Source: Sphyrna mokarran
Taxonomy: Eukaryota
Assembly (NCBI GenBank): GCA_024679065.1
Contig: JAGIQG010000005.1
Coordinates: forward strand, 60,574,001 to 60,638,000
Direction of reading: 5' to 3'
Length of the DNA stretch: 64,000 nt
The position numbers and the translations under genes were made by a program. The notes under the pieces are model-generated. The model was given only the letters and a program-made list of their open reading frames with translations. It was not told where the DNA came from and made no database searches. The stretch's first letter is position 1. The number at the start of each line of letters is the position of its first letter. Below, in pieces: positions 20,489 through 60,608 of the stretch.

Positions 20489-20533
20489 TCACTTCTGTTC
20501 ACATAGCCAATCATCCCATTCATCGGATTCAAG
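20489..20533 (-). CDS. BSDC1-like exon 11: LESDEWDDWLCEQK*
   Basis: Acceptor ttttcttttccag, TGA at 20489-20491. Matches the BSDC1 C-terminus LEDVEWEDWE. Confidence 0.85.
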   Translation of the reverse strand, partial: LESDEWDDWLCEQK

Positions 20534-20621
20534 CTGGAAAAGAAAAAAAAATGCATTATAATCACTACCTTGCAATGTGTAATGATTGTAGCAGAAAAGC
20601 AATGCAGGACAAGACTAGTAC

Positions 20622-20725
20622 CTCCCCTGAGGCTTCAGCTCGCGATAAAGTCATCTGGATTTCCTCTTCAGTCATGTCCAGATCAAGATCTTCATCCCAG
20701 TTTTCAACAGAATTTGAAATGTTTC
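20622..20725 (-). CDS. BSDC1-like exon 10: (G)NISNSVENWDEDLDLDMTEEEIQMTLSRAEASGE
   Basis: 104 nt, AG/GT bounded. Matches BSDC1 DWEKDFDLDMTEEEVQMALSKVDASGE. Confidence 0.92.
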
Positions 20726-21259
20726 CTACAACAAAAATCATAATAAAACCTGAGTCCAGAAAACACAATTCATTAATCATTGAGAACAGTTACAAATATG
20801 TATATTATAGATTCTTACAGTTTGAACCTATCACTGTTCAAACCCACTGTCACAACTATTATAACTGGAATGTTCTTCAAACTCTAATCTTGTGGTGGCC
20901 AATACATGGTCAGATTCAGTCTTCAAAATCCCATTCTTCAGCTAAATTATCTGAGCTACTTTTTTCTCTTGTTAGACACATTGTTTTTAGTTAATATAAG
21001 CCATAATGATCAGCAATCCTGCTTCTGCCACTGGTGGATTTAGATTAATTAAACATCAACCTTTTCCATCATTAAAGGAGCAACTTATATCAACCAAAAT
21101 AAAACTGCAGTCAACAAGAGAAGGGATAGTGCGGCGAATGTTAGTCTTCAGCGGATACAGAACTGAAAGCAAGAGTTTTGATTGCACTTCCACCCAATGC
21201 CTTAGTTGGGTTCATTTAATGCTTGGGTTTCATTTGAATGTGCATTGCATGTGTGAAGG

Positions 21260-22910
21260 GAATGGTAGCATGGTGGTAATGTTACCAGACTGATATCCCA
21301 GAGGCTCAGATTGACACTCTAGAATAATTCAAATTCCACCATGGCAGCTAGTGGAATTTAAGTTTAATTAATTAATAAATTTGGAGTTGAAAAGCTAGTC
21401 TCAGTAACAGAATATGAAATGATACTGTCATAGAAGTTCATTAATGCCCTCAAATCTGCCTATGTGACCACGTGATGCGTAATTAGCTTTGAGATGGCCT
21501 AGTTACCACTGATTCTAGTTGCTACAGAGAAATTGAAAGGATAAAATACTGACAGACTCTGCAATATTCTGCTCACTAACGTCTGAGGACATGACCAAAA
21601 TTGGAAGAATTTTCAAAACTAGTCAAACAACAATCACACTCACAGAATCATACAATAGAGCCAATATGCTGCCAGAAGTGATAGCATGATGATAACAGTC
21701 AGGACAGAACTGAGAGTCCTCAACATTGATTCTGCACCCAAGGTTTATGGCATCAGGTCAAACACGGGCAAGAACTTTCAGGAGCAATGGCAGTTTAATT
21801 AAGATTTCAAGAGACAGTTCCAAACATAGAATGAGTTGCCGAACTGATGAAACTAGAACATAGGACTTCATGAAGACACAACATGTGATAAACCGAGTTA
21901 AACAATCCCAGAAGCAATAAATCAGACCTAGGCTCTGCAGTCCTGCTACATCCAGACCTGAATGGTGGTGGATAATTAAACAATGCACTGGAGGAGGAAC
22001 TTTCACAAATATTCCCATGTGAGGATGCACATCAAAGCAAAAAAACTCAGCTGAAGCATTTACAGCTATCTTCAGCCAAGTATGCCAGTTGGATGATTCA
22101 AGTCAGGCTCCTGAGGTCATCACCATGATGGAAGCTTGTTGTCAGCCAATTTAATTCACTCCATATGATATCAAAAACTAGCTGAAGGCACTGGAAGGGC
22201 CAAGAGCTATGGGTCTGGATAATATTCCAGCAACAGTACAGAACACTTACAGAAATAATCATGTCAAGCTGTTCCAATACTGATATCTATCCAGCAATGT
22301 GGAAAACTGTCTAGGTCTGTCCAAATCAAATTCAATCTGTCAGCTACCATCCCCTTAGCTTCCTCTCACTAATCAGTACTATAAAGTGGCATTATTCATC
22401 ATCAACCTGCTTACTGGCTAGGAGTTTGGGTTGCACCAGGCCAATTAGCTCAAGGTCTTATTAGGCCCTGAGTCCAAATATGGATAAAAAAATCTAAATT
22501 CTAGAGGTGAGGTACAGAGTGCAGCATCAAAAGAGCTCTAGCAAAATTGAAGTTAATGGAAATCAGAGGTAGAGGGGCACTCACCAATGATTGGAGTCAT
22601 GCCTGGCACAAAAGGAAGGTAATTGTGGTTGTTGGATGTCAATCATCTCAGTCCCAGGGTAATCACTGTAGGAGCTCCACAGCATGGCCTATTTCACCTC
22701 ATGGATGCCCAGTTTTGAGCTGCTAGATTTGTTCTGAACCTGTCTCATTTAGAACCACGGTAGTAACATACAATGCAATGGAGGATAGCCTCAATCTGAA
22801 CAAAGGACTTTGACTCCACAAGGACTCTGCGGTGGTCACTCTTGTTGATATTGTCAAGGACGGATGCATCTGTGATTGATGAGGACGAGGTGAAACAACA
22901 CTCATATTGC
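21260..22910. mobile_element. Fragmented LINE of the same family as 13700-14760
   Basis: Shared motifs (ttggagtcatgcctggcacaaaaggaagg..gtggttgttgga..tcaatcatctcag). Confidence 0.65.
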
Positions 22911-25900
22911 AGGAATGAATAAACAAAGCCTTGAACTTAGGGAAACTTGTAATCTGCAAACTCATGCACGAGTGCAGCTCATGGTTTTCCGTGGGGCAAA
23001 GTGAATAAAATACCCTGTATTTGTTTTAGTAAACTTGCAGCAGTCACTTGCTTAAGACAAATATGACAAGCTGAACAATATCCTCTACAGCAGACTGGAT
23101 GGAGCAGGAGATACAGATGTTAAGGACTGCAGTGACTTTGACTGTAATGGGTAACATGTTTGTTGTAGCAGTGGGTCATAGGAAGTGACAAAACACTGAC
23201 AGTATCCTTTGAGAGTTGTGGCCTCCTTATGTGTTGTCCCATAGAGAAGTGGAGGCACAATGTGTCTATAGTTGCTGGGGGCTGAGAGAGGTGAAAAAAC
23301 ATTCCATCAGCAGGTCCCCTTCTTGCTGTTTTCTCTGCAACTCCGTGCGCTGCTTCAACCTGTTGCAGAAATTCTTTTTCCTTTAGTCAGAACAGAACTG
23401 CTAGAAGGGTACTCATTTTGAAAGAAGTGCGTTACTAGCATCCCTCGAGATTTCACGAAGCCATGTAATCAATACAAGCACATTTAAAAAAAATGAACCA
23501 CTGCAAATTGTGAACAAAATGTCCCCCAAACATTGTCGCATTTTAACTGACAGCAAGTGAATGCCGTTTGAAACTCTCAGTTCCTAATCTGTACAAGAAA
23601 CATAGAAAATTGAAGCAGGAGTAGGCCATTCGGTCCTCAGAGCCTGCTCCACCATTCATCTTGATCATGGCTGATCATCAAATTCAATATCCTGATCCCA
23701 AGATTCTAACCACCTGACTCCCTTTTCAATAGTTTAATTCCACCCCCCCTCTATTTCAGACAACAGCATCAGCCAAAATGAAAGGATCCAAAAACTATTC
23801 CTCCAGCATTGCATTGGCATTCATTTGGTTTTGCAATACTTGTCCCAAATCAACCCATTTACAGGTGTAAATGGGATGGTAATGAGAATGATGACAGGCT
23901 TTTATTCTTCCAAATCACTTTTCTTTCATCTGCTAGAGACTACCACTCTAGTTATTATCCCTTTTCAACACTTTGCCAAGCAATAGTCTTCGTCTCAAAA
24001 TAAACTTGTGACAGTCTTTGATAAGCTCTCGCCACTGAACTATCCTGCTCATTTGCCTGTATCGTGATTTAACCAATGTCATTATATCTGTGTTTAATAT
24101 GCTAAAATTAACTAAATTAACCTAGTCATTTCAATGAAGTGTTCACGTCAACACTTCGATTTCCAGGCCGGATTTTCTGGCCTGCTCCTCGTGTGTTTTC
24201 CGGTGGCAGAGGCAGCTCACCATTAGGGTCTCTTCTGGTCTCATCAATGTTGATGGCTATTTGCAGCGCTCGCTGGCCACATTGCCAGGGAACTTGGTGC
24301 AGGGGTTCACTTTTGGTGGGACTGGAAGATGCCACCGACGGGAAGGGCTGGAAAATCCCAGCTCCAGATAATGATTCACTTAAAGAAAAGCTGCAATCAC
24401 TTTTCAGTCAATAAAAATAAATAAATGGTCTCGAATTTAGTAAAATCAATATAGAGCGATCCAGAGTTCTATATAGTTGTTACATTAAAGTGACTAACAT
24501 CTGATGGCCATTACTTTTGTACTATTAGACAATGTCACAGTGATTAACTCAAAAATCACATAATGTCAAGGTCAAGTGAACAACTGATGTATCTCTACTT
24601 CAGCAATGGAAGATGGAGATCTTAAACTGGTTTTGCCATGTTTAACATAAAGTATCTTAATTAGTGAAAAATAAAACAAATATTATATCAGTATAAACTG
24701 TTGCAGAACTACTGAGAGCATGTTAGATTTTAAAAACATTGGTCCCAGTTTTATCTATGTTCTATCAGACACATTAACAGATTTAAAGTAAACTGGTTAT
24801 TATCTCCACAGCTGGCACAGCTTTCAAAAAATAATTTCAGATGTAAAATTAATATTTTAAATAAACAAATGCAATGGTGAAACTTTGGATCAGTAAATCA
24901 GCGAAGTTGAGCATATTCAACACAGTGACTTTTCTGATTTCACAAAATTTTACAGATAAAATGGATAATAAAACCCTATGTTTTTTTTTGCAGTCTGGTG
25001 GTAGGCAGTTCTATAGTGCAATTGATTTTTGGAAACAGAATGTTAGTTATTTTAGATAAAGTTATGAAAGGCATCATTGTGAAGGTACAAACAGTGCCAG
25101 CTCACAGCAAGAGAAACATGAGCTAGGGGATGAAGCTTAAAGGAGCAACCAGCATTAGAAGGCAAGTATAAAACCTTGACATTACCTCGGGAGTGACAAA
25201 ATCGTAACAAAAGTGAAGCGACAACATGTTTTTAAAAAGCTTATCAGTGAGTCACCAATTTCATGAATAAAAAAAAAGTCATTTAATAAAATAAAAACTC
25301 AAATACTGAAAGCTAGACTAAAAAGGCTTTAGTTATTGAAAGAAAAATATCAGATATTTATTATTATAATATTAGATTAAACACTGGAGTGTCAGCAAAA
25401 TATACACGAATGTAAGATTTAAGAAAAAACTAATACAAAGAGCTCTTTTTTGTGAAGTTACAGTTATAGCATAAATGCAAACAAATCTGGAATCAAGGCT
25501 GTTCTGACCCCAGAGTCAGCAGAAGGAGACCGCATTGCTTAATACCTGATTTACATTACATTTGTTTTTGGCATTAACACACATGCTAAACTTAGAGTAA
25601 CTGCACCATTCAAAAGTCTAATCTCTGGGGAGTTTGTACCCAGGAAGTATCCTAGAAAATCTGTTGCAGGACCTCCTATGAAGTCCTCACATGTCTCCAC
25701 ACAAATTTCCTGGAAAATTCAAACTCCTAATAAGTAAATATCCTGCATTGGGAACCATCCAATATTCCAACTTAATTAAGTGTTAGAAGAATTAAAACCA
25801 CTTCTAACATTTGGATAACTAATTATTAGTTACTAATTAATTCCCCTGAGCAGACCCCACCATCCCCTTCCACCTGGCACTGAACCTCCACCAGTCTGAA

Positions 25901-26339
25901 CCTTCCACCAAGTATACGCTCCCCTTCCCATCCCATGCTGAGTACTAAGCATCCCAAGTATATGCCCCCCTTCCAACTCCATGCCGGGCACTGATAGTGC
26001 AACTGATAGTTGTCACTTAAGTGTCAGGAAATGACCACCACCACCACAAAAGCGATTCAAACCACCTCTTCTTGACATTCAACAGGATCACCAAGTATGT
26101 GCTTGCCACTATGCCCCCACTCCCTCCAACCCTGTCCCTTTCCCCACAAGCACTGAGCAGCCCAAATATACATTCCCCTCCCCACTCTCACCTAGATTAC
26201 CCTTCAGCCATCTGCCACCAGCTCCCAAAACCCAACAATTCCTCATCCCCAATCACCCGCTGTTCCCCATACAACTCGGCTATGCCTTTAGCCCACTCTC
26301 TTGACCCAATTCACCATCTCACCCACGCACACTAAGCTC

Positions 26340-28060
26340 TGGCCCTTTGAATTAAATAAAATCTAGAATAAACAGGATCAAATCAGTAATGGCGACCATA
26401 CAGGTACTGGAATGTAGTACAGTTACATTCAATAACCTCCTACAAGAAAGAAAATCTGCCATCCTCACCCACATACAACTCAAGACTCAGAACAATGTGG
26501 TTGACTCTTAACTGGCCATTGAAACGTTATAGAAAACCACAGAAATAAAGAGCCAGTACTGAAAAGTCAAATAAGGATAAAGCCTGTCAGGTCACTCAGC
26601 ATTGACCAAGGTCCCAGGTAAGACAAACATGTACCTAGGCCAATCGAGCAGGCAACTCCTCTACAATAATATCTGGGGACTTGTGTCAAAGTGGGTGAAC
26701 TATTCCACAGACTAGTCAAGCAACAGCTTGACATAGGGGGCACACTAAATCATTCTGGTCAGCCAACATCATAGACTCCTTCATTCCTTGTCCCATTGGC
26801 AGGACGAATCCACCTGAGGTGGCTGTGGCAGTGTGGCATTCAGTCAGAGAGGAGTGGCCATGAGAGTGCTAAATGATGAATCCAATCACCATAGAGTCTC
26901 ATGGCATCAGGCCCTGGACCTCATTACAGCCATGGTCCAAACAACTGAACTTTAGAAAGGAGGCATGAATGATTGCCCTTGAAATCAAGGCAGCACTTGA
27001 TCATGTGTGTCATCGAAGAGCCCAAGTAGAAGTGAAATCAAATGGACTCAGGAAAAGGACTCTTCAATGGCAGGAGACAAACCTAGTGCAAAGAAAATGA
27101 TTGTGGTTTCTTAAAGGCCAGTTATCACAGGCTGAGAATATCGTTGCAGAGTTTCTCAAAGCAGGCTCCTCGGCCCCATCAACTTCGGCTGCTTCATCAA
27201 TGATCTTGCATTATCATAAATTCAGTAGTGAAAGTGTTGTTGATAACTGCCCTATTCATACTTCCTCAGATAACGAAGCAGACTGCAATGGAAATTCAGC
27301 AGGACTCGGACTTTTGCTGTAATGTGGCACAATTAATAGTTGCCACTTAAGTCTCAGGAAATGACCACCACCACCACCACAAAAGCGATTCAAACCACCT
27401 CTTCTTAATATTCAACAGGATCACCGTTGTTAAAAAAAGGCACTATCAACATTCTAGGCATCATCACTGATCAAAATCTTAGTTGGATCACCCATATGAT
27501 ACCAATACAAGAAAGGTCAAAACTGGAATTCTGCACATCTCCTGACTCCCAAAGCCTTTTCATGATCTACAAGGCTCAAACACTCTCCATTTGAACCAGA
27601 TGAGTGCAGCTCCAACAAATCTCAAGATGCCCGTAATACCTAGGACAAAACAGCTTAATTGGCAACCTACCTACTATATTGAACTTCGTCTTCCTCCACC
27701 ACCAGCACACAGCGGCAGAAGTGTGGAGTATTCCTAAGATTAACTGTAGCAGCTCACCAAGGCCTCTTTGGTAGCAGCTTCCAAACCTGCAGCCTCAACA
27801 CCTAGAACAACAAAGGCAACAGTGCTTGGGAATGAAATTCCCCTTCAAGTTACACACAATCTTAACTTGAAAGTATATTGCTGTCCCTTCATTGCGGCTA
27901 GGTCAAAACTCTCGAACGCTCATCCTGAAAGCACTGTGGCTCTACATATACCAGGTGGACCTGCTGCAGTTTAAGAAGATGGTTCATCAACATGTTCTCA
28001 AAAGTAATTAGGTATGGGCATTAAATGTTGGTCTCATCAGTCATGCCTGCATCCCACAGA
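26340..28060 (+). mobile_element. Fragmented LINE of the same family as 13700-14760
   Basis: Shared motifs (gaaatcaaggcagcacttga, ctgcttcatcaatga, tail gggcattaaatgttggtc..gcatcccac). Confidence 0.7.
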
Positions 28061-28677
28061 TGAATATAATTTTATCCCATACTTAACTGCAACCAATTAT
28101 CTTATTAGGTTTAATTATAGATTACCTACTAGCAACTGTATCACAACACAATCCATCTTGGGAGGTTCAGACTGGAGGGTCTGAATCACCACTAACATAC
28201 ATATTTCCCTGAAACAGGAAATTTGAAAAGTGATAGACATAGATTGACAGAAAAAGTATGACTTAAAAAGGGAATCTAAGCTAAACATAAAACTTTTTAA
28301 TTTAAACAGATTCTTGCAAGTGCTAAACTAAAGATAGTGAGTACGATTCTTCCCCAAAAATTCTAAGTGTCGAATTTGCATAAAATCTGGAGTAAATCCT
28401 ATAGGTGCTTTCAATGGGAGTTTCAAAATGAATCTCCTATATGCTGTGCACTGCAGCATGCCTCAGCATGATTCATGTGAAAAACCAGGGAGCGGTGCCT
28501 ATTCCCATTGGAGAGGCCTGCAGCATAGCGCTGAGGCGCCAGTGTGTATGTACTAATCTGTCAGTGCCGAGACCTGCGCCTGCACAGTGGCCCCTGTCTG
28601 CCAGCGTCCTGATCGCTGGCCAGCCCCACAACCCCTACATTGCTGGCCGTGCGATCCCTCTATGGCCTGATCGTTGG

Positions 28678-28896
28678 TACAGTAAGAAATCTGACAACAC
28701 CAGGTTTAAATCCAGCCGATTTATTTGATAGTAAACTCACAAGCTTTCGACCCTCTGGCTTTCGTCAGGTGAAGGCCAGAGGATTGAAAGCTTGTGAGTT
28801 TACTATTAAATAAATCGGTTGGATTTAAACCTGGCGTTGTCAGACTTCTTACTGTGTTTACCCCAGTCCAACGCCGGCATCTCCACATCATGACTA
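28678..28896. mobile_element. Penelope-like inverted terminal-repeat element forming a ~175 nt hairpin, 11-nt TSD
   Basis: Arms 28679-28763 and 28771-28855 are near-perfect reverse complements. CTGATCGTTGG is duplicated at 28667-28677 and 28897-28907. Confidence 0.8.
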
Positions 28897-29603
28897 CTGA
28901 TCGTTGGCCCAGGCCAGCCTCGACTCCATCTCCTTAATCGCAGATCTGATCTCCCGATTTCTGAGCCAAAACTGATGACACCAGAAACCCGGTGCTAGGA
29001 GACGCATGGAGGCTAAGGTCTATGGTGCCCAGTGGGAAGCAACACAGCAGGATGCGAAAATTACCCCCGATTTTTCTAAAATGATGTTCAAACACCAGAA
29101 ATTTAGCAGCAAATTAAAAATTTTTTAAATGTTCTGAATTACTCAACGAACCAAGGCAAAGAAAGAATAGACTCATCATAATTTCAATTTATGGCTTGTG
29201 CTAAGTTTAATCATTTCAGCCAGATTGCCAGCAGTGTTAACACAACTGGTCTTAGCTGTCCCAAGTTAGAGAGAGGAAAATTAACCATAGTTTTCATTCC
29301 TGGTTGCAGTCCAGGAACCAATACTACAAGTAAGCTTGTGAAAAATATGCTGAACACATGCTAGAATTTTCCGTGAAGTCTAACTGTCACCAGTCTGCTG
29401 ATACTGAATGACAAAATGCAAATTTGAAGAATGGTCGCTTGTGATAGGTACCACAGAATGACTGCACCTATCAATCTGAACTGAAACAAGCAGCTACAAA
29501 CTTCAGCAGGGGTAAGATTGCTGGAAAAAGACAAAGAATTAAAAAAAACAAAACTATTTGACAAATGGTCAAGTTAATATATAATTTGAAATAAAACACT
29601 CAC

Positions 29604-30095
29604 CATTTTCACCCTTAAAAGAAGATTCATCAATATTAGAATTTAATTCTACTGTTGCATTTTGAGCAGTGTCAGACTGTAAATGGATTCTCTCATGATC
29701 GCTTAGCTCAGGAGTGGATATGGGCTCCTCTTCAAAACCTAGAGTGTCCTCACCAATACTTATACCTTCATCTGCAAATAGTTTGTAACATAATTCTTCT
29801 TTTAAAACACTTTTGTTTTCATGCTTCCCCTGGACTTCCAAAAATGGTTCCAACATTTGGATAATTTCTCCTGCTGGAGGTTTATATACAATTCCTTTTT
29901 TGTCCACGACAGAAAGCAACGCAACTGGGTGCGTTTCATTGGATGTGCTTTCGGAAAGACTTGCTCCTAAGCCAGTTTCCTCCACTTTGTTGTTTCCTGG
30001 TTGTTCAAGTGTTCTGCCATGCATGTTGCTAGTTATGTTTAGATTGTTGGGTCTAAAAGTAGCAGTCAAGGATATACTTGTGTCATCCCACTCAT
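29604..30095 (-). CDS. BSDC1-like exon 9 (large acidic, low-complexity exon)
   Basis: 492 nt open frame (ORF track 29569..30105), acceptor gtcttcag, donor gtgagt, phase 1-1. Weak similarity to BSDC1 (ELNS motif, LCYKLF vs LSQKLL). Confidence 0.85.
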
Positions 30096-30217
30096 CTGAA
30101 GACAAAAAGATGAAACAGAAACTATTTTAAATTACTTAGATCATTATACTATTCTATGTACACAAGATCACTTAAATAAATCTCCACAATGGAGCAAGGA
30201 GTTCTAAGTATCTGTAC

Positions 30218-30299
30218 CTTCATCATCTTCCCATTTAAGATCCTCAGAGTGTGTGCTTTGTTCTGCCCTTTCTTTTAAAGCTTGTCTCCTAGATTCCTC
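30218..30299 (-). CDS. BSDC1-like exon 8: EESRRQALKERAEQSTHSEDLKWEDDE
   Basis: AG/GT bounded, 82 nt. Matches BSDC1 EQARRDALKQRAEQS..WEEEE. Confidence 0.92.
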
Positions 30300-33262
30300 C
30301 TAAACAAAAATTGCAATAAATAATGTGTATTAGTTTGTAATTCTGATTTAATTTTAATATTTCCTCTTTCTTTATCTCATTCACTTCTTCCCTGTTACCT
30401 GCTGAATTTGTCTATTTTTGTTATTATCTAACTGTTACATGTTTATACATTATTTTTTATTGCAAGTTACATTGCAATTCAGCCTTTGGACCGTGCAATT
30501 ATTATATGAATAACTGGTATTTCCATTATTTATTACCATGCCCCTTTACATACTGTATTCAGACTGTGTTTACATTTTACATTACGTGGCTAGTGTCCCC
30601 AGTGCTGCCTTAGAAATCTTTGAAATCTCTTTCAAATGTAAATTTCAGGTTGATCTGGAGATTCTTTTCTCTTTGCTTTGAATCACTTTGAAGTCATTTG
30701 TTCATATTCAATCCATGAACATTGGATTGACAGCCCCAGTCTATTTTAAAGGAGGAATTTCCACAACCAATCTTGAAAAGCAACAAATGAACAAAAAGCT
30801 CTTTAATGTTCTCTGATTAACAATGTCATCTACTTCAAATGCAGAATTAACTTTGTTTTCATAGCCCTTCACCATACGTTACTTTTACGAGCTTCCTGAT
30901 CAACAGCTGAGTACTTTCCAGAAGAGGGAATAGTTTGGTTTGTTTTTGTAGCACCTTATACTCCATTAACTCTTGAGATACTTCACTTTTTGAGCAGGTA
31001 TTCTTTCTGACTACATTTTCATACTGGTTTTCTTTCTATGGTGAAGTTCCCTCTAGAAAGAGCAGGTGCTCTGCCTGACCAGATTTTTTAAGGGAATATT
31101 TTTTCAAATCTGAAATGCTTCCTAGAAAGCTCATGTGTGCAGTTTGAGTGCAATGTTTAAAGGAGTTTTTTTCTAATTCTTATGCCTGAACAGCCTGCGT
31201 TTAGTGGGAGCCAATTTTAACAAATACAAGCAATTGACACAATTAAAGTCCAAGGGATCCTCAATGAGGACCTTCTCATAGTCACTGCTGAATTCTCTCG
31301 AAAGACATGATGGCCACATCAAGGGGGCTCAGAAGCTGTTGTAGCTCCTGGTAGTCAGGATAAGATATGCCTTGGCATTGCCCCTCTGGGACACAGGCAG
31401 TGCTTGAAGGGGAAAGCTTTTGGCTATCCCAAATTAGGGTGTTGCTCATTTGGGAGGGGTAGCGAGTGCTACTGGGGATGGGGTATGTTGGGGAATGATT
31501 GGGGTAGATGGGTGACCCAACCATTTAGTGATGGGGAATGGGAATGAGTTAGTTGTCTCTCTATGCTGAAGGGTTGGGGGTGATGCCCTTATCTGCTGGG
31601 CAGGGGCGGAATTTGCAAAGTCCTGAGGGGGGTTGGAGGAGGGGGTGGCTGTCACTTTACTCGAAAATTGGAGCATCCTTTTTAAAAGAACCTCAATCTC
31701 AGAGGAACCTGACTTGTATTCCAACATGTGTAAGCCCAACCTCACACAAACCCCATTCCCCTCCAAAAAAAATGATTAGTTGTGGGTGGATTGCAATTGG
31801 GATCGCACGCAAACATGATGCAATTCCCACTTGAGATGATAGTCTTTTTCTTTTGGTGAACTGTGCCCCATAGATCTGAATTAGGTACTTGGTACAATAT
31901 GATCAGAACAACAGTCAGCCCCATTAATAACAGCTGCTAATATTTAATAAGCTAGGAGTCTCAGAAAACTTCCAGTGATAGTCCTGATAAACACAGTATT
32001 CCACTAAACAAATTGTGGCATAGCTGTCTCCTTATTCTCTACTGTGCCATCAGACTTTTAAATGGATCTACCTCGCATTAATTTGATCTTTTTTTATTCT
32101 AGCTATGACTGTAACATTACATTCTACACTCCCTCATTTTCTTTTCTATATACAGTATACTCTGTCTGTACAGCACACAAAAAACAATACTTTTCACTTT
32201 ATACACGTGTCAATAATAAATCAAATCAAATGGTGATTCTGCTATTTCAGTAATTGGCACTAATTGGGGAAGTCACTTAGAAGGTGCACAAGTTTGAAAC
32301 AAGGCAACAACATTCCATCATCCTGAGTGGAATATTTTGTTTTATTTGTTCATGAAGTGTGGACATTGCTGCACTGGCCAGCCTTTACTGCTCATCTCTG
32401 AGGATATTTAACAGTCAACCACATTGCTGGAGTCACACATAGGCGAGACAAGGTAAGAACGACAAATTTCCTTCCCTAAAGGAAACTGGTGAACCAGACA
32501 AGTTTTTATGACAATCAACAATGGGTTCATGATCATGGTTAATCTTTTAATTCCAGATTTTTTATTTCTTAATTCGAATTTTACCATCTGCAATGGTAGA
32601 TTTGAATCAGGGTAACCAGAACATTATCCTGAGTTTCTGGATTACTAGTTCTGTAACAATACCACTGCACCTCTGCCCTACCCAAGAAAAAATATTCTGG
32701 TACCATTTTGCTCATATTATAAGCTTACTCTTCTTAAGGCTATTTTATTATAAAAGACAATCAGCATCACTTGTCTGGAAGTGACATAAATTTATTACAA
32801 ATGCTTTTGCCTACAGAAATCCAATATTCAGTAGAATATTTAGTTAGAACTAACTGCCAACCCAATCCCCAAGTTTCTCCAATAGCACAATTTCACAGCA
32901 ACCCCCATCCTCAAATCCCATTTTCTGGTAAACTTTGTCTCTGCTTTTCTGTCCTCATCCTTTCTTGCTCTTGAAAAAGACGAATCGTAGTACAGCATTT
33001 TCATGAATATTAATCACCTTCCAATAATCAAACTTACTAGGAGTGATCCTCTGTACTAATTAGGCATTTGATCCAGAGGGTGCCACAACCAAACCTGACC
33101 TACTCCTCACCTGCCATTCAAAACAGGGGAATTTACAGCAATTGTTTATTTTCATCTTCCATCCCACCATCGCTACCCAGATATGCTGAAATTAAAGTTA
33201 GTATCCATACTGCACATCTTTATTGTCTTGTCCAGAAAATGTCTATCCATTGCAGTCCTGAC

Positions 33263-33331
33263 CTGATGAAGTTGGTGGACTCTGTAGAAATACCGACACC
33301 AAAAGTCAGCATGAGTGACCTCAGAAGGAAC
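33263..33331 (-). CDS. BSDC1-like exon 7: VPSEVTHADFWCRYFYRVHQLHQ (BSD domain FW motif)
   Basis: 69 nt, AG/GT bounded. Matches BSDC1 VPAAVSHSEFWHRYFYKVHQLEQ. Confidence 0.93.
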
Positions 33332-34016
33332 CTGTTAAAACATTTCAAATAAAAATAGGCAAATCAAACATAAAAAGCTCACATATACAATAAAAGCACA
33401 GTAAAGTTAAAGCACAAAGTGCTATTGATAAAACAATGCTTCTTATGAGTTACATAAAATTAATAGATTTGTCTAAATTAGCATGGCTTAGCTCATTCAC
33501 AAAAATGAGATTGCAAGGTTGATCCTCAAAAGAATAATATTTCAGCCCACTTTTCCAAACCACAACTTTTTAAAAGTTCACAGGAATAATGTGATGAAAG
33601 TAAAATTGTTAGCTCAAACTGAATTTGAATTTTTTTGCAGCAATTTGAAGAAATTGTTTTAGCTTCACAATCCATATTTTTCTTCCAAGAATACAAATGA
33701 ATCTATAGTAAGGTAAAGTCCAAGATGACCATAGGCTGCTCTTGCTTTTGATGGGGAGAGCTGACTAATGGCAATTTTACCTGAAGATTAGGAAACACCT
33801 CAGGAAAAAGGGCAAGGTTGAAAGGCAGGCCTGTATGAATAACCTCAGCCAATACAAGAATTGAACCTGTGCTCTGCATCGTGAACTAACCATCCAGCCA
33901 ACAGAGCGAACTGACTCCTCAAGAGCTGGAAGTGAAATCCATCTTTGCACATGTGTGGTTGCATGCAACATATCTAAGTACTTTAATTCACCAAAAATGT
34001 TTTCTGTTAAATTTAC

Positions 34017-34123
34017 CAGTTTTGCATAAAGATCTCTTATTGATGGACTATTGACCAAGAGATTCGATATTGTACAGTTCTCATCTTCCAAGGTGAAGGT
34101 CAACAGCCAGAAGTTAAATTGAT
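34017..34123 (-). CDS. BSDC1-like exon 6: (D)QFNFWLLTFTLEDENCTISNLLVNSPSIRDLYAKL (BSD domain)
   Basis: Acceptor tctgcag, donor gtaaat, in frame with exons 5 and 7. Matches ISELLVGSPSIRALYTKM. Confidence 0.85.
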
Positions 34124-35511
34124 CTGCAGACATAAAAGGATTCACATAGAATGAGAAAAGAGTGAGCTCATCCAAATAATCACCGAAAACAGGTCAGCTT
34201 TGAAATTCAGTATTTAATTTGCTGGAAAGAACTAAAATAAATTTGAATATTTTGAATGACAGAAAATATTTCCTGCAGGTTACTCACTAATAAGAAGCAC
34301 TGATTTTTTTCATTATGCACATTCAAAGCAAAACTGAGACTGAACCATGAAGGAAGGATATGTAGGGAGACTGAAACCAACAATTTCTGTGTAATCATTA
34401 AATTCTAGGTGAGCAAATCAGGTGAATATCTAAGAAATTGCTTTGCACTGGAGTTAGAAACACAGTGAAAATGACAAATCTTATTTGTTACACAGGCCAC
34501 AAGGAATAACAAATCTGCACATTGTTTTCTAATTACCCTGGATGCATTATTCTGAATCACTAACATTGTTTAATTTTTATTAGGATAGAGAATTGTCTCT
34601 CAGTTCTGGCATGGGAATGATTCCTGCTGACAGCGCTGGCATGGTCTTGGGCTGAATCTTATGCCTCATTGGTAATAAATTTTATGCCTATGAGTTTCAC
34701 GTTCCCTCTGATTTGCCAGCCCCACAACAACCTAACCACTGCAAGAACTGGACAGCTCCATATAAACGGCACACCAGCACTTTCACAATGACTGCAGGGA
34801 ATGGCAAACAAGGCAGCACCTTGCTACTTGGAGGGGGCCCTCACCAGAATGCTGGATGGAGTAAAGGCAGGAACCTCAATCCTGGCTCTCCACCCCTTGG
34901 ATAAAGTGAGAATGAGCAGCAATGTCAGAAGATGAATGATCTTCTTCACTCAGCAGGGTAAGTGAACCACCCCCAGTCTCTCACTTAACCCCCTCGCACA
35001 CTTTTTGCACATCTAATCGCTGTCTTTAACTCAGTAAATGCCAAGGTAGCTAACAACAGGCACCAGCTTTCTCCTTTCCTTGCAAAATCACCATGTTTGC
35101 TTAGTACCTGCTATGTTTCTCACACTCCAGTTCCCATTCAAATCCAATGCATGCCACATCTCATCACCAGCTTAAATGCCAATGCTCCCACCTACACTCT
35201 TCCTCTTTTGTGTCATCACAGGTCAAACTCAACCACAACAGGTGTAAGCGGGCGCACCTAGCTGGTGGAGACATGCCTGAACTGAGAACTCTCACACGTT
35301 CTGAGGAGTGAGCCCTTGACTCACTAGGGAGGAGGAAGAGCGTGCCTATGCTGCTGCTGAAATGAGGACAGCAGAGAAATGTGATGAATTCCTACATGAA
35401 ATAATCTAGTACGTAAAGAGGAATGATGCAATAGTTAAAATATGAAAATCTTTGGAAGAAATTTTGTTTGCAACTCTCCAAATGTCAATTTTACTTTTTG
35501 TTACATCTTAC

Positions 35512-35566
35512 CATCTGGCCTACTGGAGTACGTTGCAGGATCAGTCTGAAGGTTACTGAGACGGAT
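35512..35566 (-). CDS. BSDC1-like exon 5: IRLSNLQTDPATYSSRPD
   Basis: 55 nt, AG/GT bounded. Matches ARLYSLQSDPATYCNEPDG. Confidence 0.92.
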
Positions 35567-35659
35567 CTGTGAAATAAAAAATGGTAGAAGATAGCTGTTT
35601 TGAAAAAATAATTTATCCTTCTACTTCACCTCTATCCATTATCTGACAACACTGTGTAC

Positions 35660-35827
35660 CTTAAAACTATCATATGACTCGCTAATTTGCATTTGAGTAT
35701 CATTTATTGTTTCCACATCAGACGTGATGGATCCTTCTGCTGTAGGTGTAAATGCATCAGAGATAGCTCCAAGCAATTTTGACAGCCCTTTGCTCAATGC
35801 TTGGTCTCCTTCTGTGTGTTCCTCAAC
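35660..35827 (-). CDS. BSDC1-like exon 4: VEEHTEGDQALSKGLSKLLGAISDAFTPTAEGSITSDVETINDTQMQISESYDSFK
   Basis: 168 nt, AG/GT bounded. Matches KKGLSDFLGVISDTFAPS...YD. Confidence 0.9.
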
Positions 35828-36159
35828 CTGGAAGAGAAGAAAAGCACCAAAATAAATCCTCTACACTTCTGCAGTTTGTAAATATCATGGTAATATCTAT
35901 CTCTGGTTTTACTGAACATAGGAGTGGGGGAGAAAATAACAGCTATGTTCAATGAAAATTAAAAATCATATTAGCTCATGAACTTGATGACTGAAAGATG
36001 TTGCATACTTTCCTTTGAAATATGGTTCAATGTATAATGCTTAAATTCACAAATTTGCAGTTACATTATTGCTGGAACATAAATACCAAAACAGCAAAGA
36101 CATTCTACCTTTTGTTATCAGAAATCATTAACTATATTACACTTTATTATCAACATGAA

Positions 36160-38420
36160 ATAAAATGAAGTGCTGGAAAAATACAGCTGATCTGGCAGCA
36201 TCTATGAAGAAAGGAACAGAGTTTCAAATTCTTATGACCCTTCTTCAGAATTACAGAGAGGCAGAAATGTGATGGATTATATACTGTACAAAAGGGATAG
36301 AGCAGCTGGGGCAGATTAGAAGATCAGTGAAAGGTGGATCAGATTGCAGCAAAGATGTGTAAATCGCAAGAGAAGGAAGCACGTAGGGCTGTAGTAGGTG
36401 ATGATAGTGGCATAATGGTAACATATCAGAATGTATTAGTGGAAGAACAAATGTCAGTGCTCAGTGAATACAAAACCAAAGAATAAGTGATTGATGGCAA
36501 AGTGGATGAGAGGAGCAGGAGAACTGAATTGGCTCAAAAAATATTTTGGATATAAAAAAAGGAGATTAAGAGGAAGGAGAAAGATCACAGTCTAAAGTTG
36601 TTGCAACTCAGTATTGAATCCTGAGGGCTGCAACATGCCTCATCAGAAGACAAGATGTTGTTCCACCAGCTTTAGCTGGTCTTTACAGGAGCTTTGCAGC
36701 AGGCCAAAGATGAACATTTGAACAAGCATGAGAGCAAGTTGTTGCATTGAAACGGCAATTGACAAGAAGGTTGGAATTATACCTGCAGGCTGAGTGAAAA
36801 TGTTCTGCATAGCAGTCACCCTAGAACATAGAACATAGAACATTAAAGCACAGAACAGGCCCTTCGGCCTTCGATGTTGCGCCGACCAATATAAAAAGCA
36901 ATGCCCCTCCAAACTAAACCATTCCCTTCTCTTCCATATACTTATCAACTAACCTCTTAAACGCCACCAAACTTGGCGCATCTACAACCGCTGCAGGCAG
37001 GGCATTCCACTCCCGAACCACCCTTTGGGTAAAGAACCTGCATCTGATATCCGTCCTATAACTATCACCCCTTAATTTAAAGCTGTGTCCCCTCGTGCTA
37101 GCTTTTTCCATCCTAGGAAAAAGGCTATCACTGTCCACCCTATCTAAACCTCTAATCATCTTATATGTTTCGATCAGGTCCCCTCTTAGCCTCCTCCTTT
37201 CTAACGAAAACAACCTCAAATCCCTCAGCCTCTCTTCATAAGACCTGCCCTCCATACCAGGCAACATCCTGGTAAACCTCCTCTGTACCCTCTCCAATGC
37301 CTCCACATCTTTCTTATAATGTGGGGACCAGAACTGCACACAATACTCCAAGTGCGGCCGCACTAGAGTTTTGTACAGTTGCAACATGACGTTGCGGCTC
37401 CGAAATTCAATCCCTCTACCAATAAAAGCCAAGACTCCATATGCCTTCCTAACAACCTTCTCGACCTGACTGCCTACTTTCAGGGATCTATGCACATACA
37501 CACCAAGATCCCTCTGTTCATCTAGACTACTAAGAATCCTACCATTTGCCCTATACTCTACACATTTATTATTTCTGCCATAGTGCATTACCTCACACTT
37601 TTCCACATTAAACTCCATTTGCCACCTCTCGGCCCAGCTCTGCAACTTGTCCAAGTCCCTCTGCAAACTATAACACCCCTCTTCACTATCTACCACTCCA
37701 CCGACTTTAGTGTCATCTGCAAATTTACTAATCCCTGTCTGTGGTTAATCTCCACAATGTAGAGAAGACCACATTGAGAACAGTGAATACAATAGACCAA
37801 ATTGAAGGAGGTACAAGTGAAATACTACTTAACCTGACAGAAATGTTTGGGATCTTAAATGGTGATGAGGGAGGAGATTAAGGGACAGGTGTTGCACCTT
37901 ATGCGATTTCATGGGGAGGTGCCATTTAAAGGGAATGGAGTGGTAGGGTGATGGTGAAATGGACTAGGGTGTCATGAAGGAAGTGGTCCATGCAGAATTC
38001 TGACACAGAGAGTGACGTGTTTCATGGTGGCATCATGCTGGAGTTGGTGGAAATCACGGAGGATGATCCTTTGAATGCAGACGCTAGTGTGGTGGGAAAT
38101 GTGAGCAAGGGAGACCCTATCATGGAGGAAAGGAAGGTTTGAGAGCATAAGTGCAGTTTCCTTAATCTTGGTTAAGGAAAAAGGCAGACATGTCAGAAAT
38201 ACCATTTTCCAAGGTGGCATCATTGGAATTGATGCGATAGAGATGGAGAAACTTGGAGAATGGGATGGATTCCTTATAAGAAGCAGAGCGTGAGGAGGTG
38301 CACTCAAGGTAGCTGTGGGAATCAGTGAGCTTGTATTTCTCTTGTCACAAATGCTGTCAAACATGCTGTTATTTCCAGCACGTTATGTTTTTATTTCAGA
38401 TTTCCCACATCCGCATATTC
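36160..38420 (-). mobile_element. Old Penelope-like element remnant (GIY-YIG region) split by the CR1 insertion
   Basis: Minus strand near 37740-37830 reads FTCTSFNLVYCIHCSQCGLLYIVE and resumes GDCYAEH after the CR1, matching the PLE endonuclease NLVYCIxCxxCGLLYIGET..RLGDRFAEH pattern. Confidence 0.7.
36823..37732 (-). mobile_element. Young 5'-truncated CR1 LINE (RT C-terminus intact)
   Basis: Uninterrupted frame ISKFADDTK...LQRDLDKLQSWAERWQMEFNVEKC...YKTLVRPHLEYCVQFWSP (ORF 36914..37696), with a (CTATGTT)n tail. Confidence 0.95.
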
Positions 38421-38732
38421 TGCTTTCAGTGTAACTGGATTAGTTTTCCACTGAAATCGCAGCATGACTAAAATTGCTGTCATGCAAAGATCATAAATAA
38501 GAGCTTTTTTTTATAATATGTATATATTATTCAGTGCATTCACACATCCCATTATAGATATGTTTATCAATATTGAAACAAAATAAACAGAAGCATGATC
38601 CTTAGAGGAATTTAATGCTTCTACCAGAACTTGCTTACACTTCCTTACAAGAAAAAAAGTAAATTTATTAACAGATATGCAATCAGAAACTTGGTATGTA
38701 CAGTGTAAGTTATAAATAGGCTACAAACTCAC

Positions 38733-38849
38733 ATTAAGTTTCTCTTTGAATGCTAAAGCTGTGGCTGCAATGGTAGTCACAGTGTCATGTTGGATAACCT
38801 GAGTGAATTCAGCCAGATCATGTGTCAAAAATTCCACAGCTTTTGCAGA
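38733..38849 (-). CDS. BSDC1-like exon 3: SAKAVEFLTHDLAEFTQVIQHDTVTTIAATALAFKEKLN
   Basis: 117 nt, acceptor tttgcag, donor gtgagt. Matches SSEALEFMKRDLTEFTQVVQHDTACTIAATASVVKEKL. Confidence 0.93.
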
Positions 38850-40002
38850 CTGCAAATTAAAATGATAAAAAGGATATAGTCTTAATCCTGTTACACACAA
38901 ATGTGAAATCATTGCAGGGAATATAGTAGCTTATACTTAAACAGCTGACACGTGGTATATTGCCGTCATTCGTAATCCAGCAAATAAGTTGGCAATGCCA
39001 TCAAAAAGCCAAAATCTATGAAAATTTTCTCCTTCCTATAACAACATCAGAACTACGATTTCCTTTGGAGACATTTTGTGTGTCTACAGTGCTGGCTTGA
39101 GGCACACAAAATCGCTACACTGAAGTGACTTTCTGATTCAACCTAATTTGCAATGGATGAACTAACTCAAGGGATCAATAATGAGTAGGAAAAAATGCTA
39201 CTGTGAGACTGTTTATATTTGAAAGGAAAGAGGATTTAAAACTATTTCAACAAAACATGATGCTAGCAGTAGTGTGACAATTGATAATTTATAAAAGCAA
39301 ATGCAAAAGAGAATCTTATTCCCCTTCAATAATTCTTGTTTTGTGACCACAAAAGCATAAATAAGATGATAATGTGCAAACAATAATGGCATTTAGTATT
39401 GTAGATTTGACTGTAACACAGATATATATTTAAGGATATTTACCAGGCACTAGGGTGGAGAAATCTAGAATTACTTTATCATGAATGGTACTGCTCAAGC
39501 AGTTATGACACATGGAAATGCCACTTAAAGCTCTTTGATTCTTCAAAAAGATTCTTCAAAACAGTCCAGCTGACAGAGAAATGGGCAATGCAGCAATGCT
39601 AGTCTAAATTGAATGAATGGACTAGAGTTGGAGGAAGGAGAGAATATCCCCCTTTTTTTAAGGTAATAGATGCCAGATTCAAACAGTTGATCAAGGGGGT
39701 ATTCAAAGGAGGGAGCTTAGTGAGGAGGAGTTAGTCCTATCTGCTGAGGGAGGTTAGTTGTATTGCTGGGAGGAGGGTGGTGTATGATGGGAGGCATTGC
39801 ATGATGGCAGATTGTAAGGAGTTGGGCGAGTTTGGTTGTGGAACTATCCAGTTCTTAGACCAGGTTTTCACCTATAACATTCCCTGGATTAGCTTCCAGG
39901 TAAGTTGCATCCCTCTAGCCTAGATATCAAGTTGAGGTGGAGACATTTATGGATTATCCCAGGGAAGTTTAAACTTTAAGGACAAATTCCTATACAAAGA
40001 CT

Positions 40003-40120
40003 AACCTGATGAATGAGCAGTGCTCCGAAAGCTCGTGATTCCAAATAAACCTGTTGGACTTTAACCTGGTGTTGTGACACACTTTTACCATGCCCATCTG
40101 AGCATCTCCACATCATGGCT
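40003..40120 (+). mobile_element. Penelope-like terminal-repeat fragment with hammerhead-like core
   Basis: ctgatgaatgagcagtgctccgaaagctcgtgattccaaataaacctgttggactttaacctggtgttgtga. Confidence 0.75.
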
Positions 40121-40431
40121 ATCTCGGGGAAGTCTAAACTTCCCAGGCAATTCCTACCCAAGGTCTTCCATAGAGGTCCAAGACTCATCAGCCAACCCTA
40201 CACCCCATTTCCAAGAATGTGGAGACATGAAAATTTGGGATTATATTTATCAAAGTAGGTCTGCAATGGAATATAACGGCAGAAATAAATGGAATGGACA
40301 AAGTGTTAGAATCCTTAACAAAATCATTAGCAAATTTAATTGTTAAATATTCTAAAGCAATCTCACGAATTTCAATACCATTTTATTCGGCTTTGCAGAA
40401 AATCGGATTTTTTTTTAAAGAAGCTCCATAC

Positions 40432-40480
40432 CTTGGCTTTGACCGTCGCGATATTGTCTTGAATCCAATGCCTCCACCAT
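40432..40480 (-). CDS. BSDC1-like exon 2: (R)WWRHWIQDNIATVKAK
   Basis: 49 nt, acceptor ttggtag, donor gtatgg. Matches WWRSWLQQSYQAVKEK. Confidence 0.85.
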
Positions 40481-40582
40481 CTACCAAGGGAATCAGGAGA
40501 AATCAGTACAATCTATTTATTTTAAAAAAATAAATTGCCGCTGCTTCGCGTTGCTTCCAGTTTGTAACTGCTGCTTACTTAC

Positions 40583-40593
40583 CTCTCCGCCAT
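40583..40593 (-). CDS. BSDC1-like exon 1 coding part: MAE(R)
   Basis: ATGGCGGAGAG followed by consensus donor gtaagt. BSDC1 starts MAEG. All 11 exons sum to 1299 nt with no internal stop. Confidence 0.85.
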
Positions 40594-41107: not shown

Positions 41108-41132
41108 ATGACCCAGTCTGTGCTGGTGCAAG
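41108..41132 (+). CDS. TUBE1: Epsilon-tubulin exon 1: MTQSVLVQ(V)
   Basis: ATG at 41108, donor gtaaag. TUBE1 N-terminus is MTQSVVVQVGQCGNQ. Confidence 0.93.
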
Positions 41133-41194
41133 GTAAAGAGGCGGCCCAGTGCTCAGTGCCTGATCTGTCCAGTTTGTTTTCGACAGCAACTTCC

Positions 41195-41420
41195 TTACTT
41201 TCTCCCCGTGTCTGCATGGGTTTCCTCCGGGTGCTTCGGTTTCTGCTCTCGCCAGAGATGTGCGGGTTAGGTGCATTGACCATGCTCGATTGTCCTTTAG
41301 TGTCAGCGGGATTAGAAGAGTAAATATGTGAACCGTAGGGTCTGGCTGGCTTTGTGATGGGCGCGGCTTCGAAGGACTGAATGCCCCCTCCCCACTTCTG
41401 CACTGCAGGGATTCTGTGTT
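41195..41420 (+). mobile_element. HE1-like SINE fragment in TUBE1 intron 1
   Basis: ttctccccgtgtctgcatgggtttcctccgggtgcttcggtttc...gcactgcagggattct. Confidence 0.75.
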
Positions 41421-43039
41421 TTTTATATAGAGTGGCTCAGTGGTTCATAAGACGATAAGATATTGGAGCAGAATTAGGCCACTCAGTCATTCAATCATGG
41501 CTGATATTTTTCTCGTCCCCATTTTTTTGCCTTTTCATGTTGTCTGTCAACCCAGTGCCAGGCACCTGGGTACAATTTTTTGGCCATACTCGCCCAAAAT
41601 GGGGAAATCCTGCCTGAGGTCAATAGATCATTGTATGTCTACATCCCCCCCCCCTCCCCAGCTATGATTACTGTGGCAGGGATAGGATAATTCTCCCCAT
41701 CTTTCTGCACGGGACCCCTTTTCCTGGGGCACCAACTAAACATGACCAATTGCCCCCAGCAACTCAAAGATGCTGTTCACTGCGACTAGCTGTGACTGTG
41801 AAACTGTCAGTGTTCTTTTTCAATACCCCTCCACGGTGGTTAGCAACATCAGCAATCTGCATGTGCAGATTTAAAGCAGAAATGCAGAAGTTGCAGTTAG
41901 TGGTTCTGCGTTCCACCCCCATGAGGTGCTTTGTTTATGTTTTATTTATTATTTATTGATTTATTTATCATTCTCATGTATTGGGATACAGACCTTGTGA
42001 GCTATGGAGACAAAATATACTGTTCATGTTTTTATTAATTCAAAGGGTGTGGGCTTTGCTGGTTAGGCTGACATTTATTTTCCATCCCTAAGTTCTCCCG
42101 GACTGCGGTCAGTTAGAAATCACTGTACTGATCAGAACTTTTATTCTCATGCCATTGCTGTAGTGTGCTGGTGAATACTAAAAGCATTTTGTCATGGGAG
42201 GGAGTCAATAAAGTGCGCAGTAATCACCTGCATGTAAGTCAGTTGCAGTGGAAATGGGTGCATTTGGCCAGTCTCAGCGACCCCAACTGTACACATCTGT
42301 TCTCAGTGGCTTACCAAGTTAAGATGGTTGGCTGATTAATGTTTACATCAGTCCCACTGCAAAAACCCTTGAAAAAGTTATACTTCATTATGTGAAGTGT
42401 AATTTGGTTTTATTGCTGAAAAATCTCTCTGGCTCTTGAATTTTTTTTAATTTGTGGCATGTCAAAGATTTTCTATCAGTTGATAAAGTATTGTTATTTT
42501 TAAAAATATATTTTCAATAAGTTTACGATATTTCTGCCTTAATTCCATGTATGTGTTCCAACAACTTATTTCACTGTGTAAAATTTAATTGAAAGTTTTA
42601 GTTCTTGGTTTCACCTCTGTGAGAATATTTGTGTGACTGGCTGCTTTCCTATTGCAGATATTATTGTTATTGGATGTGTGGAGATCCCTTTGACCTGACA
42701 TACAATTCAAACTAAAGTTAGGGAAGGGGAAACCAATGCCACAAAAATCTGAGACCTTTGTGGACACTGACTGCTTTCTTTAAGGTCATTGGGGAGAGAA
42801 TGTTGCCACTTTGACTGTGAAATTGGGCCAATGTATTAAACCTCATGTAAGGAATAGATGCTATTTATCTCAGACTGCTGAGAGCAAAAGTACATTGATG
42901 ATCATTATGAAAGAACTAAAGAACACTGGGAAGAGAGACTATTTCCGACCTAAGAAAATAATCATATTTGAAATAAGTAGGAAGAAGACAAGTTTTGGCA
43001 GCTACTTTAATTTCATATAAAATAATGAAATCAATTGAG

Positions 43040-43400
43040 AAAAGTCATCTTGAAGTTTATTTCTAGCAGACATCATGGATTTAAAAGAAGATCCTGTCAG
43101 TTTAAATTCCTTGAAGAAATGGCAATCCAAGTCAACTGGTAAATTCTACAACATTGTGCAATTAAACTTCCAAGCAATAGCTGATAAAATTTTGCATGAA
43201 AATTTCTTAAGCTCAAAGCTTTGTGGATGTAGACAAAACAATGTACATAGACAAGAAAATAGAAGGTTAGAAAACTTGTCCGTATCAAGTTTAAGGAGAG
43301 ATCTTGAGTAAGGTGTCCCAGAGTTCAGTAAGAGGATCATTGCTGCTTGCAATGTTTATCAGTGACGTGACTCCAGAAACTCAGCTCAAGTTGATCAAAT
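43040..43400 (+). mobile_element. Old CR1 RT fragment
   Basis: aaatttgcagatgatactaaact (KFADDTK) and ggtgtcccagag. Confidence 0.6.
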
Positions 43401-44670: not shown

Positions 44671-44744
44671 TTGGCCAATGTGGCAATCAAGTTGGCTGCA
44701 GATTTTGGGATTTGGTTTTACGAGAACATGCAAATGTGAATAAG
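44671..44744 (+). CDS. TUBE1: Epsilon-tubulin exon 2: (V)GQCGNQVGCRFWDLVLREHANVNK
   Basis: AG/GT bounded, tubulin GQCGNQ motif. Confidence 0.96.
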
Positions 44745-45205: not shown

Positions 45206-45258
45206 AAAGGAATCTATGATGAAGCACTCAGTAACTTTTTTAGAAATGTGGATACAAG
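45206..45258 (+). CDS. TUBE1: Epsilon-tubulin exon 3: KGIYDEALSNFFRNVDT(R)
   Basis: AG/GT bounded, in frame, matches TUBE1. Confidence 0.95.
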
Positions 45259-60594: not shown

Positions 60595-60608
60595 GTTTGA
60601 AGGAAATG

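Follow-up and report, generated by a model that had tools for sequence, protein, structure and literature searches.

The 64,000-nucleotide (nt) window analysed here, from the shark Sphyrna mokarran (assembly GCA_024679065.1, contig JAGIQG010000005.1, positions 60,574,001 to 60,638,000), carries on its minus strand an intact, 11-exon second copy of BSDC1. We put at roughly 0.65 the probability that this copy is the ohnolog of BSDC1 from the second, jawed-vertebrate round of whole-genome duplication, that it was lost early in bony vertebrates, and that it encodes a predicted coat-binding adaptor; an origin by whole-genome duplication, counting both rounds together, is highly probable. The ohnolog interpretation had been advanced in a sequence-only reading of the window and is supported by our analysis, with a conserved synteny block carrying most of the weight.

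What can be said of the gene itself? Spliced by coordinate, its exons (Table 1) give 1299 nt with zero internal stops, encoding 432 amino acids (aa) followed by TGA, and all ten introns are GT-AG. This reproduces the 11-exon, stop-free BSD protein with a C-terminal acidic W-x-x-W of the sequence-only reading. Exon 7 alone scores 35.4 bits against the Pfam BSD profile PF03909 (cut-off 24.6, E 1.1e-8), the nearest ortholog of the protein 59.2 bits, and the protein is 90% identical over its full length to the Mustelus asterias 'BSD domain-containing protein 1-like' entry at NCBI. A single BSD domain above the cut-off, homology outside this domain and matching intron phases identify it as a member of the BSDC1 family. 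A processed copy or pseudogene is excluded by the ten introns and the open frame. An open stretch of 93 aa in intron 9 (24129-24407, minus strand) was discarded as a candidate extra exon, as it has no Pfam match and the orthologs align without it. Solved structures gave no match to the protein (best E 0.42), and the Atlas search returned BSD clusters only.

A genome search with exon 3 found a single other locus, on a contig of 46.5 Mb (C816), and a full-length shark BSDC1 query gave 11 matches, nine on C816 and two in the window. The genome has exactly two BSDC1 loci, and with the second locus on C816 the window gene is excluded as the sole BSDC1. Identity between the C816 gene and Mustelus BSDC1 is 96%. 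The C816 gene shows both marks of a 1p35-type BSDC1 ortholog, a place inside the BSDC1 clade and neighbours of the TSSK3/FAM229A kind (here a TSSK-type kinase and a FAM229 gene), as anticipated for a second, more similar locus; the window gene shows neither. Both genes have the same exon plan, one BSD domain, a tryptophan-rich N-terminus, an acidic linker, a C-terminal acidic W-x-x-W and a downstream FAM229 gene in the same orientation. Their intron phases agree in ten out of ten cases, the first for C816 being inferred from the reading frame, as its exon 1 was not located, and exons 3, 4, 5, 7, 8 and 10, six of the eight internal exons fully compared (3-10), are equally long. Residues 5-210 of the window protein are about 53% identical to canonical BSDC1, and 31 of 44 fourfold-degenerate sites differ, which amounts to saturation. 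Together, intron phases, exon lengths and saturated sites argue that the copy was made at the DNA level, and long ago. The window gene departs from canonical BSDC1 in its identity of about 50-55% in conserved columns, an about fivefold faster rate, the lack of a Ser/Thr-rich block, a BSD domain that starts three residues shorter, the absence of an adjacent TSSK gene and a head-to-head position with TUBE1; most members of its clade also have a short tail after the last tryptophan. The canonical gene has a GC donor after exon 8 (C816:1304733), where the window copy has GT. Three further BSD-domain exons exceed the Pfam cut-off (C1437:80162516, C816:6656840 and C335:62343694), two of them weak matches to the same part of the profile on different contigs; SYAP1 and GTF2H1 are expected as further BSD-domain genes in a vertebrate genome.

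The chromosomal setting of the two loci is that of a duplicated block. On the window's contig (C1104, 131.9 Mb), the BSD gene (-) is accompanied by FAM229 (-), a MARCKS-family gene (-) 1.15 Mb on and an HDAC gene (+); on C816, BSDC1 (+) is accompanied by a TSSK-type kinase (-), FAM229 (+), a MARCKS-family gene (+) 0.83 Mb on and an HDAC gene (-). All three families searched for the block (FAM229, MARCKS, HDAC) are thus present on both contigs in matching order and orientation, with HDAC on the sides and strands that the block predicts, and in the whole genome the FAM229 and MARCKS families have exactly two loci each over the cut-off, one per contig. This matching gene order argues for duplication of a whole block rather than of a single gene, and gives substance to the paralogous segments of 1p35 and 6q21 type that the initial proposal had put forward. 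Some genes are seen on one side only: a search of the window for TSSK gave no match (best E 1.3), and counterparts of TUBE1, CCN and laminin on C816 are not established. The pair FYN and LCK, which belong to different Src subfamilies, is poor evidence for a paralogon, and no Src-kinase motif (FYN) occurs within 140 kb to the right of the window. In the little skate, chromosome 5 carries Tube1 and Hdac2-1 and chromosome 26 carries Bsdc1-2 and Marcksl1, and Table 3 of the skate paper equates LER5 or LER8 with 2-alpha and 'maybe LER26 = KJ_2beta' (PMC10115646). Second-round duplicate pairs typically comprise one large and one small chromosome (PMC8302630), and an A2/KJ2 alpha fusion was named by Simakov et al. 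(PMC7269912). The sizes of our contigs, 131.9 versus 46.5 Mb, fit such a pairing of alpha and beta chromosomes. It is this chromosome evidence, and not the gene tree, on which the choice of the second round is based.

Our rooted maximum-likelihood (ML) tree (JTT+G4) comprises 39 rows, selected from 313 proteins by taxon spread and completeness, and 263 columns, with the unalignable linker (window residues 223-387) trimmed. The window protein and its relatives form a clade with support 100/100 and Callorhinchus, the elephant shark, at its base. It stands apart from the clade of chondrichthyan and bony-vertebrate BSDC1 (94/94) instead of grouping inside it, which would have contradicted the proposed origin. 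All vertebrate rows unite with 98/99, placing the duplication after the separation of amphioxus. Two positions that are fixed in 21/21 and 20/21 gnathostome BSDC1 rows show the ancestral state in 12/12 rows of the new clade. Taken alone, the gene tree suggests that the duplication probably preceded the split of sharks and bony fishes, and it cannot tell the first from the second genome duplication. The suggested check against amphioxus and lamprey thus came out as expected for the position outside gnathostome BSDC1, while leaving the round of duplication unfixed and the rejection of a duplication within cartilaginous fishes marginal.

Could the copy date back to the first, pan-vertebrate duplication, with its lineage separating from that of BSDC1 ahead of the divergence between lampreys and jawed vertebrates? 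This is what the unconstrained ML tree depicts, where the window clade lies outside cyclostomes plus BSDC1. In thorough approximately unbiased (AU) tests under JTT+G4/LG+C10, the second-round topology reaches p values of 0.66/0.55, the first-round topology 0.58/0.52 and a lamprey-sister topology 0.38/0.60, so that the latter two pass at 0.38-0.60; moreover, lamprey and BSDC1 have the Ser/Thr block in common to the exclusion of the window copy. However, the node in question has a support of 9/59, and the fast rate of the window clade invites long-branch attraction. Amphioxus-polarised changes number six for the second round versus five, and a degraded trace of the Ser/Thr block in the window clade indicates that the block is ancestral. 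With the large/small chromosome pairing and the skate Table 3 suggesting an alpha-beta pair (PMC8302630, PMC7269912, PMC10115646), we regard a first-round origin as unlikely.

Which organisms have retained the second copy? An ortholog of the window gene is present in 20 named species of cartilaginous fish, among them sharks, rays and the elephant shark, as the claim of retention in this group had it. A profile search, evaluated for the best 120 of 447 matches, contains 18 members of the new clade, 17 from named cartilaginous fishes and one unnamed, skate-containing cluster; another three species come in through cluster members. Both copies are present in the elephant shark (P0043 in the new clade, and P0107). 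The other 102 of these best 120, among them gar, bowfin, bichir, reedfish, sturgeon, teleost, coelacanth, reptile, bird and mammal proteins, all score at least 138 bits better with the canonical profile, both profiles having been built from some of the rows they scored. Of the 311 proteins scored, 42 belong to the clade, and for the remainder any preference for the new profile stays within 17 bits. An index-free search of 1.84 billion 50% representatives retrieved BSDC1 of lamprey, hagfish, amphioxus, sea urchin and a cnidarian, and yielded three clade members, none from a bony vertebrate, among the best 150 of 1539; a search for short proteins contributed two unnamed fragments among 702 candidates. 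Two proteins tried as possible bony-vertebrate orthologs, gar BSDC1 (P0044, the best-scoring bony protein) and a Megalops 'BSDC1-like' protein, both group with canonical BSDC1. Among the annotated gar, bowfin, bichir, sturgeon, teleost, coelacanth, reptile, bird and mammal proteins examined, no ortholog was found. With orthologs in 20 cartilaginous fishes, this makes the loss look bony-vertebrate-wide, and we infer that it took place along the stem of bony vertebrates; the original wording, a gene lost in mammals, understated the extent.

Differential retention of ohnologs has precedents. The skate paper counts 68 such cases, 19 of them chondrichthyan-only, for example wnt6b and cspg5 (PMC10115646). 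The BSDC1 copy resembles these in being kept in cartilaginous fishes and absent in bony fishes, and differs in that the lost, fast copy is the one on the large, presumed alpha chromosome. The same source lists 17 and 24 ohnologs in common with coelacanth or ray-finned fish (PMC10115646), and we have considered that the ohnolog survives, intact or decayed and unannotated, in lungfishes, coelacanth, bichirs or amphibians, with later or repeated loss. This would be compatible with a second-round origin, and predicted proteins, in the profile search the best 120 of 447 matches, are what was searched. The clean score gap described above, the presence of only three clade members among the best 150 of 1539 representatives and the mere two unnamed fragments among the short proteins make such survival quite unlikely.

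A duplication confined to cartilaginous fishes, with a BSDC1 copy placed beside FAM229B and bony vertebrates never having had the gene, would agree with the distribution, with three changes in common with chondrichthyan BSDC1 and with fast AU tests (p 0.14-0.20), but is very improbable given thorough AU values of 0.052 (JTT+G4) and 0.03 (LG+C10), a bootstrap share below 2% and the two positions ancestral in the new clade, and it needs a copy with all introns to land beside a FAM229 paralog in the ancestral orientation.

The new copy has evolved markedly faster than BSDC1, diverging more in 21/21 species pairs with a median of 5.0-fold (range 3.6-9.5). The Ser/Thr-rich block that precedes the last acidic segment in 20/21 gnathostome BSDC1 rows and in lamprey, with a variant in hagfish, is found in 0/12 rows of the new clade. 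A short degraded trace, clearest in the elephant shark, is kept there, from which we conclude that the block is ancestral. The same block is partly eroded in a second, fast-evolving BSDC1 of Megalops cyprinoides (P0154/P0306), a copy that probably goes back to the teleost duplication. Fast divergence, the lost block and non-synonymous exon-6 differences could mean that the duplicate is under relaxed selection, decaying and left with almost no function. Such decay is hardly credible for a gene with named protein models in 20 species from the elephant shark to rays, conserved columns that remain 63-72% identical across the deepest split of its clade, 29 of 263 columns invariant across all 39 tree rows, and spliced transcripts in relatives.

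For these transcripts we drew on three small-share sequencing runs of relatives and on Logan contigs. In run X3, exon 6 is followed without a break by the first letters of exon 7 in a contig of 526 nt, and 149 letters further on comes exon 9, roughly the span of exons 7 and 8 together; a contig of 206 nt has exons 3 and 4 side by side; runs X1 and X2 gave no contig matching 33900-35900. Logan contigs of 1.6-2.4 kb encode the entire 429-aa skate ortholog and, judging by their length, are spliced, provided that the skate gene is built like the window gene. Spliced transcripts of the BSDC1-like gene thus exist in relatives, and for Sphyrna mokarran we infer its expression. Of the junction check that had been suggested, the part on relatives has been delivered.

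Several observations weigh against our overall reading. On the side of the tree, the position of the cyclostomes has only the 9/59 support mentioned, fast constrained searches reject no topology by AU, and in the thorough tests the second-round, first-round and lamprey-sister topologies all pass (p 0.38-0.66). A bony-vertebrate-sister topology is never rejected (p 0.07-0.24; thorough AU 0.07/0.24), and lamprey-polarised changes in common are only five versus three. On the side of the chromosomes, the authors of the skate assignment to alpha and beta qualify it with 'maybe' (PMC10115646), and the published trend is for greater loss and faster evolution on beta segments (PMC10115646, PMC7269912), opposite to the pattern of the window gene. 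As to absence, the bony-vertebrate result refers to annotated proteins (best 120 of 447; best 150 of 1539), and the named rows of the 120 profile matches include no lungfish or amphibian. Finally, the listed exon-6 differences from a relative are all non-synonymous (3/3), and no sequencing run recorded as RNA was found for Sphyrna mokarran.

What might the protein do? Next to its BSD core, the new copy keeps two acidic tryptophan motifs: the pattern Wx(1-6)[W/F] in an acidic stretch occurs twice, scored by a pattern of our own rather than the exact ELM expression LIG_deltaCOP1_diTrp_1. The terminal W-x-x-W is present in 37/39 tree rows, down to sea anemone, in 114 of the 120 homologs listed and in 62 of 76 distant representatives. 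AP-2 and the AP-1/GGA ears, too, are bound by motifs of this kind, and acidic tryptophan motifs have further partners. Acidic di-tryptophan motifs bind the delta-COP mu-homology domain (ELM LIG_deltaCOP1_diTrp_1; PMC7145657), an identical WDDW in acidic context recruits coatomer in Drosophila FAM114A (PMC11441981), and the BSD protein SYAP1 is located near the Golgi (PMC5037158); a paper of 2020 lists the function of BSDC1 as unknown (PMC7579924). SYAP1/Sap47 has the BSD domain in common with the window protein, and FAM114A/CG9590 the acidic di-tryptophan motif; both belong to separate families and serve as functional analogies only (PMC5037158, PMC11441981). From the motifs and these precedents we tentatively predict a cytosolic adaptor that may bind vesicle coats, a proposal with somewhat less than even odds. 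The tryptophan-rich N-terminal helix and BSD domain would engage a membrane or a partner, and the acidic di-tryptophan motifs either the mu-homology domain of delta-COP or a coat ear of similar kind. Probably arisen in the second, jawed-vertebrate duplication and presumably lost early in bony vertebrates, the second BSDC1 would be transcribed from a promoter common with TUBE1, and would keep coat binding while escaping the control that the Ser/Thr block may give canonical BSDC1.

The gene is already auto-annotated. The 'BSD domain-containing protein 1-like' entries of sharks, rays and Callorhinchus at NCBI and UniRef are its orthologs, with 50-90% identity and in one clade with the window protein. 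This label is automatic and is also given to teleost duplicates (Megalops) and to single copies of invertebrates, and the Callorhinchus new-clade copy is named plain BSDC1, an orthology that our tree corrects. Our searches (BSDC1, names for a second copy, shark, FAM229B-TUBE1; the listed BSDC1 hits judged by title) found no paper on the BSDC1-like gene as a separate gene, and 'BSD' does not occur in the main text of the whale shark paper. To judge by the name Bsdc1-2, the skate annotation contains a second copy, and BSDC1 may be among the 19 chondrichthyan-only ohnologs (PMC10115646). The gene is thus undescribed in the papers found, within a known class of chondrichthyan-retained duplicates. 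As BSDC1 looks single-copy in bony vertebrates, the retained twin implies that the jawed-vertebrate ancestor likely had two. The two copies separate parts that could not be lost, the BSD domain and the terminal acidic W-x-x-W, from a Ser/Thr block that could, which offers a concrete binding test, and they add a case in which the copy on the large chromosome, and not that on the small one, sped up and vanished.

A more far-reaching scenario, rather unlikely as a whole, would see in this unnamed 'BSDC2' the alpha twin of BSDC1, which lost a conserved regulatory block, accelerated fivefold, was deleted along the stem of bony vertebrates contrary to the usual retention bias of alpha chromosomes and left its promoter to FAM229B, with the BSDC1 family acting as coatomer adaptors. 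Human FAM229B lies head-to-head with TUBE1 at the place where the shark BSD gene starts, and a promoter left behind would explain this arrangement. If true, the acidic di-tryptophan motifs kept by both copies for more than 400 million years would identify the members of the BSDC1 family as adaptors for coatomer, giving a first testable mechanism to a human gene whose function is unknown.

The neighbourhood of the gene (Table 1) bears out its placement between TUBE1 and FAM229B in the order BSDC, then FAM229. The window is flanked by a laminin-G exon to its left and by CCN-type exons to its right, matching the human order LAMA4-FAM229B-TUBE1-CCN6; the neighbours are named by family matches, position and this human order, and not by ortholog trees. 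The CpG-rich stretch between the facing start codons is likely a bidirectional promoter of the tubulin and BSDC1-like genes.

Table 1. Features of the window, with positions counted from its first letter.
Feature	Positions	Strand	Basis
BSDC1-like exon 1, coding part (ATG at 40593)	40583..40593	-	splicing; same start in orthologs
Exon 2, Trp-rich N-terminal motif	40432..40480	-	splicing, alignment
Exon 3, 117 nt as in canonical BSDC1	38733..38849	-	adjoins exon 4 in 206-nt contig of relative's run X3
Exon 4, 168 nt as in paralog	35660..35827	-	splicing, X3 contig, paralog comparison
Exon 5, 55 nt as in paralog	35512..35566	-	splicing, paralog comparison
Exon 6, first half of BSD domain, 107 nt (116 in paralog)	34017..34123	-	joined directly to exon 7 in X3 contig
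Exon 7, second half of BSD domain	33263..33331	-	Pfam PF03909, E 1.1e-8
Exon 8, helix and beginning of acidic Trp motif	30218..30299	-	splicing, motif and paralog comparison
Exon 9, variable acidic linker without canonical BSDC1 Ser/Thr block	29604..30095	-	splicing, X3 contig, alignment
Exon 10, 104 nt as in paralog, conserved acidic block	20622..20725	-	splicing, paralog comparison
Exon 11, C-terminal acidic W-x-x-W and TGA stop	20489..20533	-	splicing, motif count
TUBE1-type tubulin gene, head-to-head neighbour; end approximate (last exons unmapped)	41108..60631	+	family match and position
FAM229 gene, 92 aa, two exons (9786-9620 and 4878-4767), downstream, same orientation	4767..9786	-	family match and position
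CpG-rich stretch, 67% G+C, 25 CpG, observed/expected 1.13, between facing start codons	40900..41099	.	base composition; promoter role inferred

Some minor features were noted along the way. Intron 3 contains a LINE reverse-transcriptase fragment (36917-37744, minus strand) with an open stretch of 276 aa and a weak RVT_1 match below the cut-off, which is a very high-copy repeat in the relatives' sequencing runs. The FAM229 gene of the window has a modestly CpG-rich stretch of its own near 10.3-10.5 kb, and carries Asn where its C816 paralog has Pro within a conserved cysteine motif. In the CCN-type gene to the right of the window (C1104:60659393 and 60661814, minus strand), one cysteine-rich exon is present in two similar copies 2.4 kb apart, the upstream copy diverging midway (L025:1393-1893 and 3814-4272).

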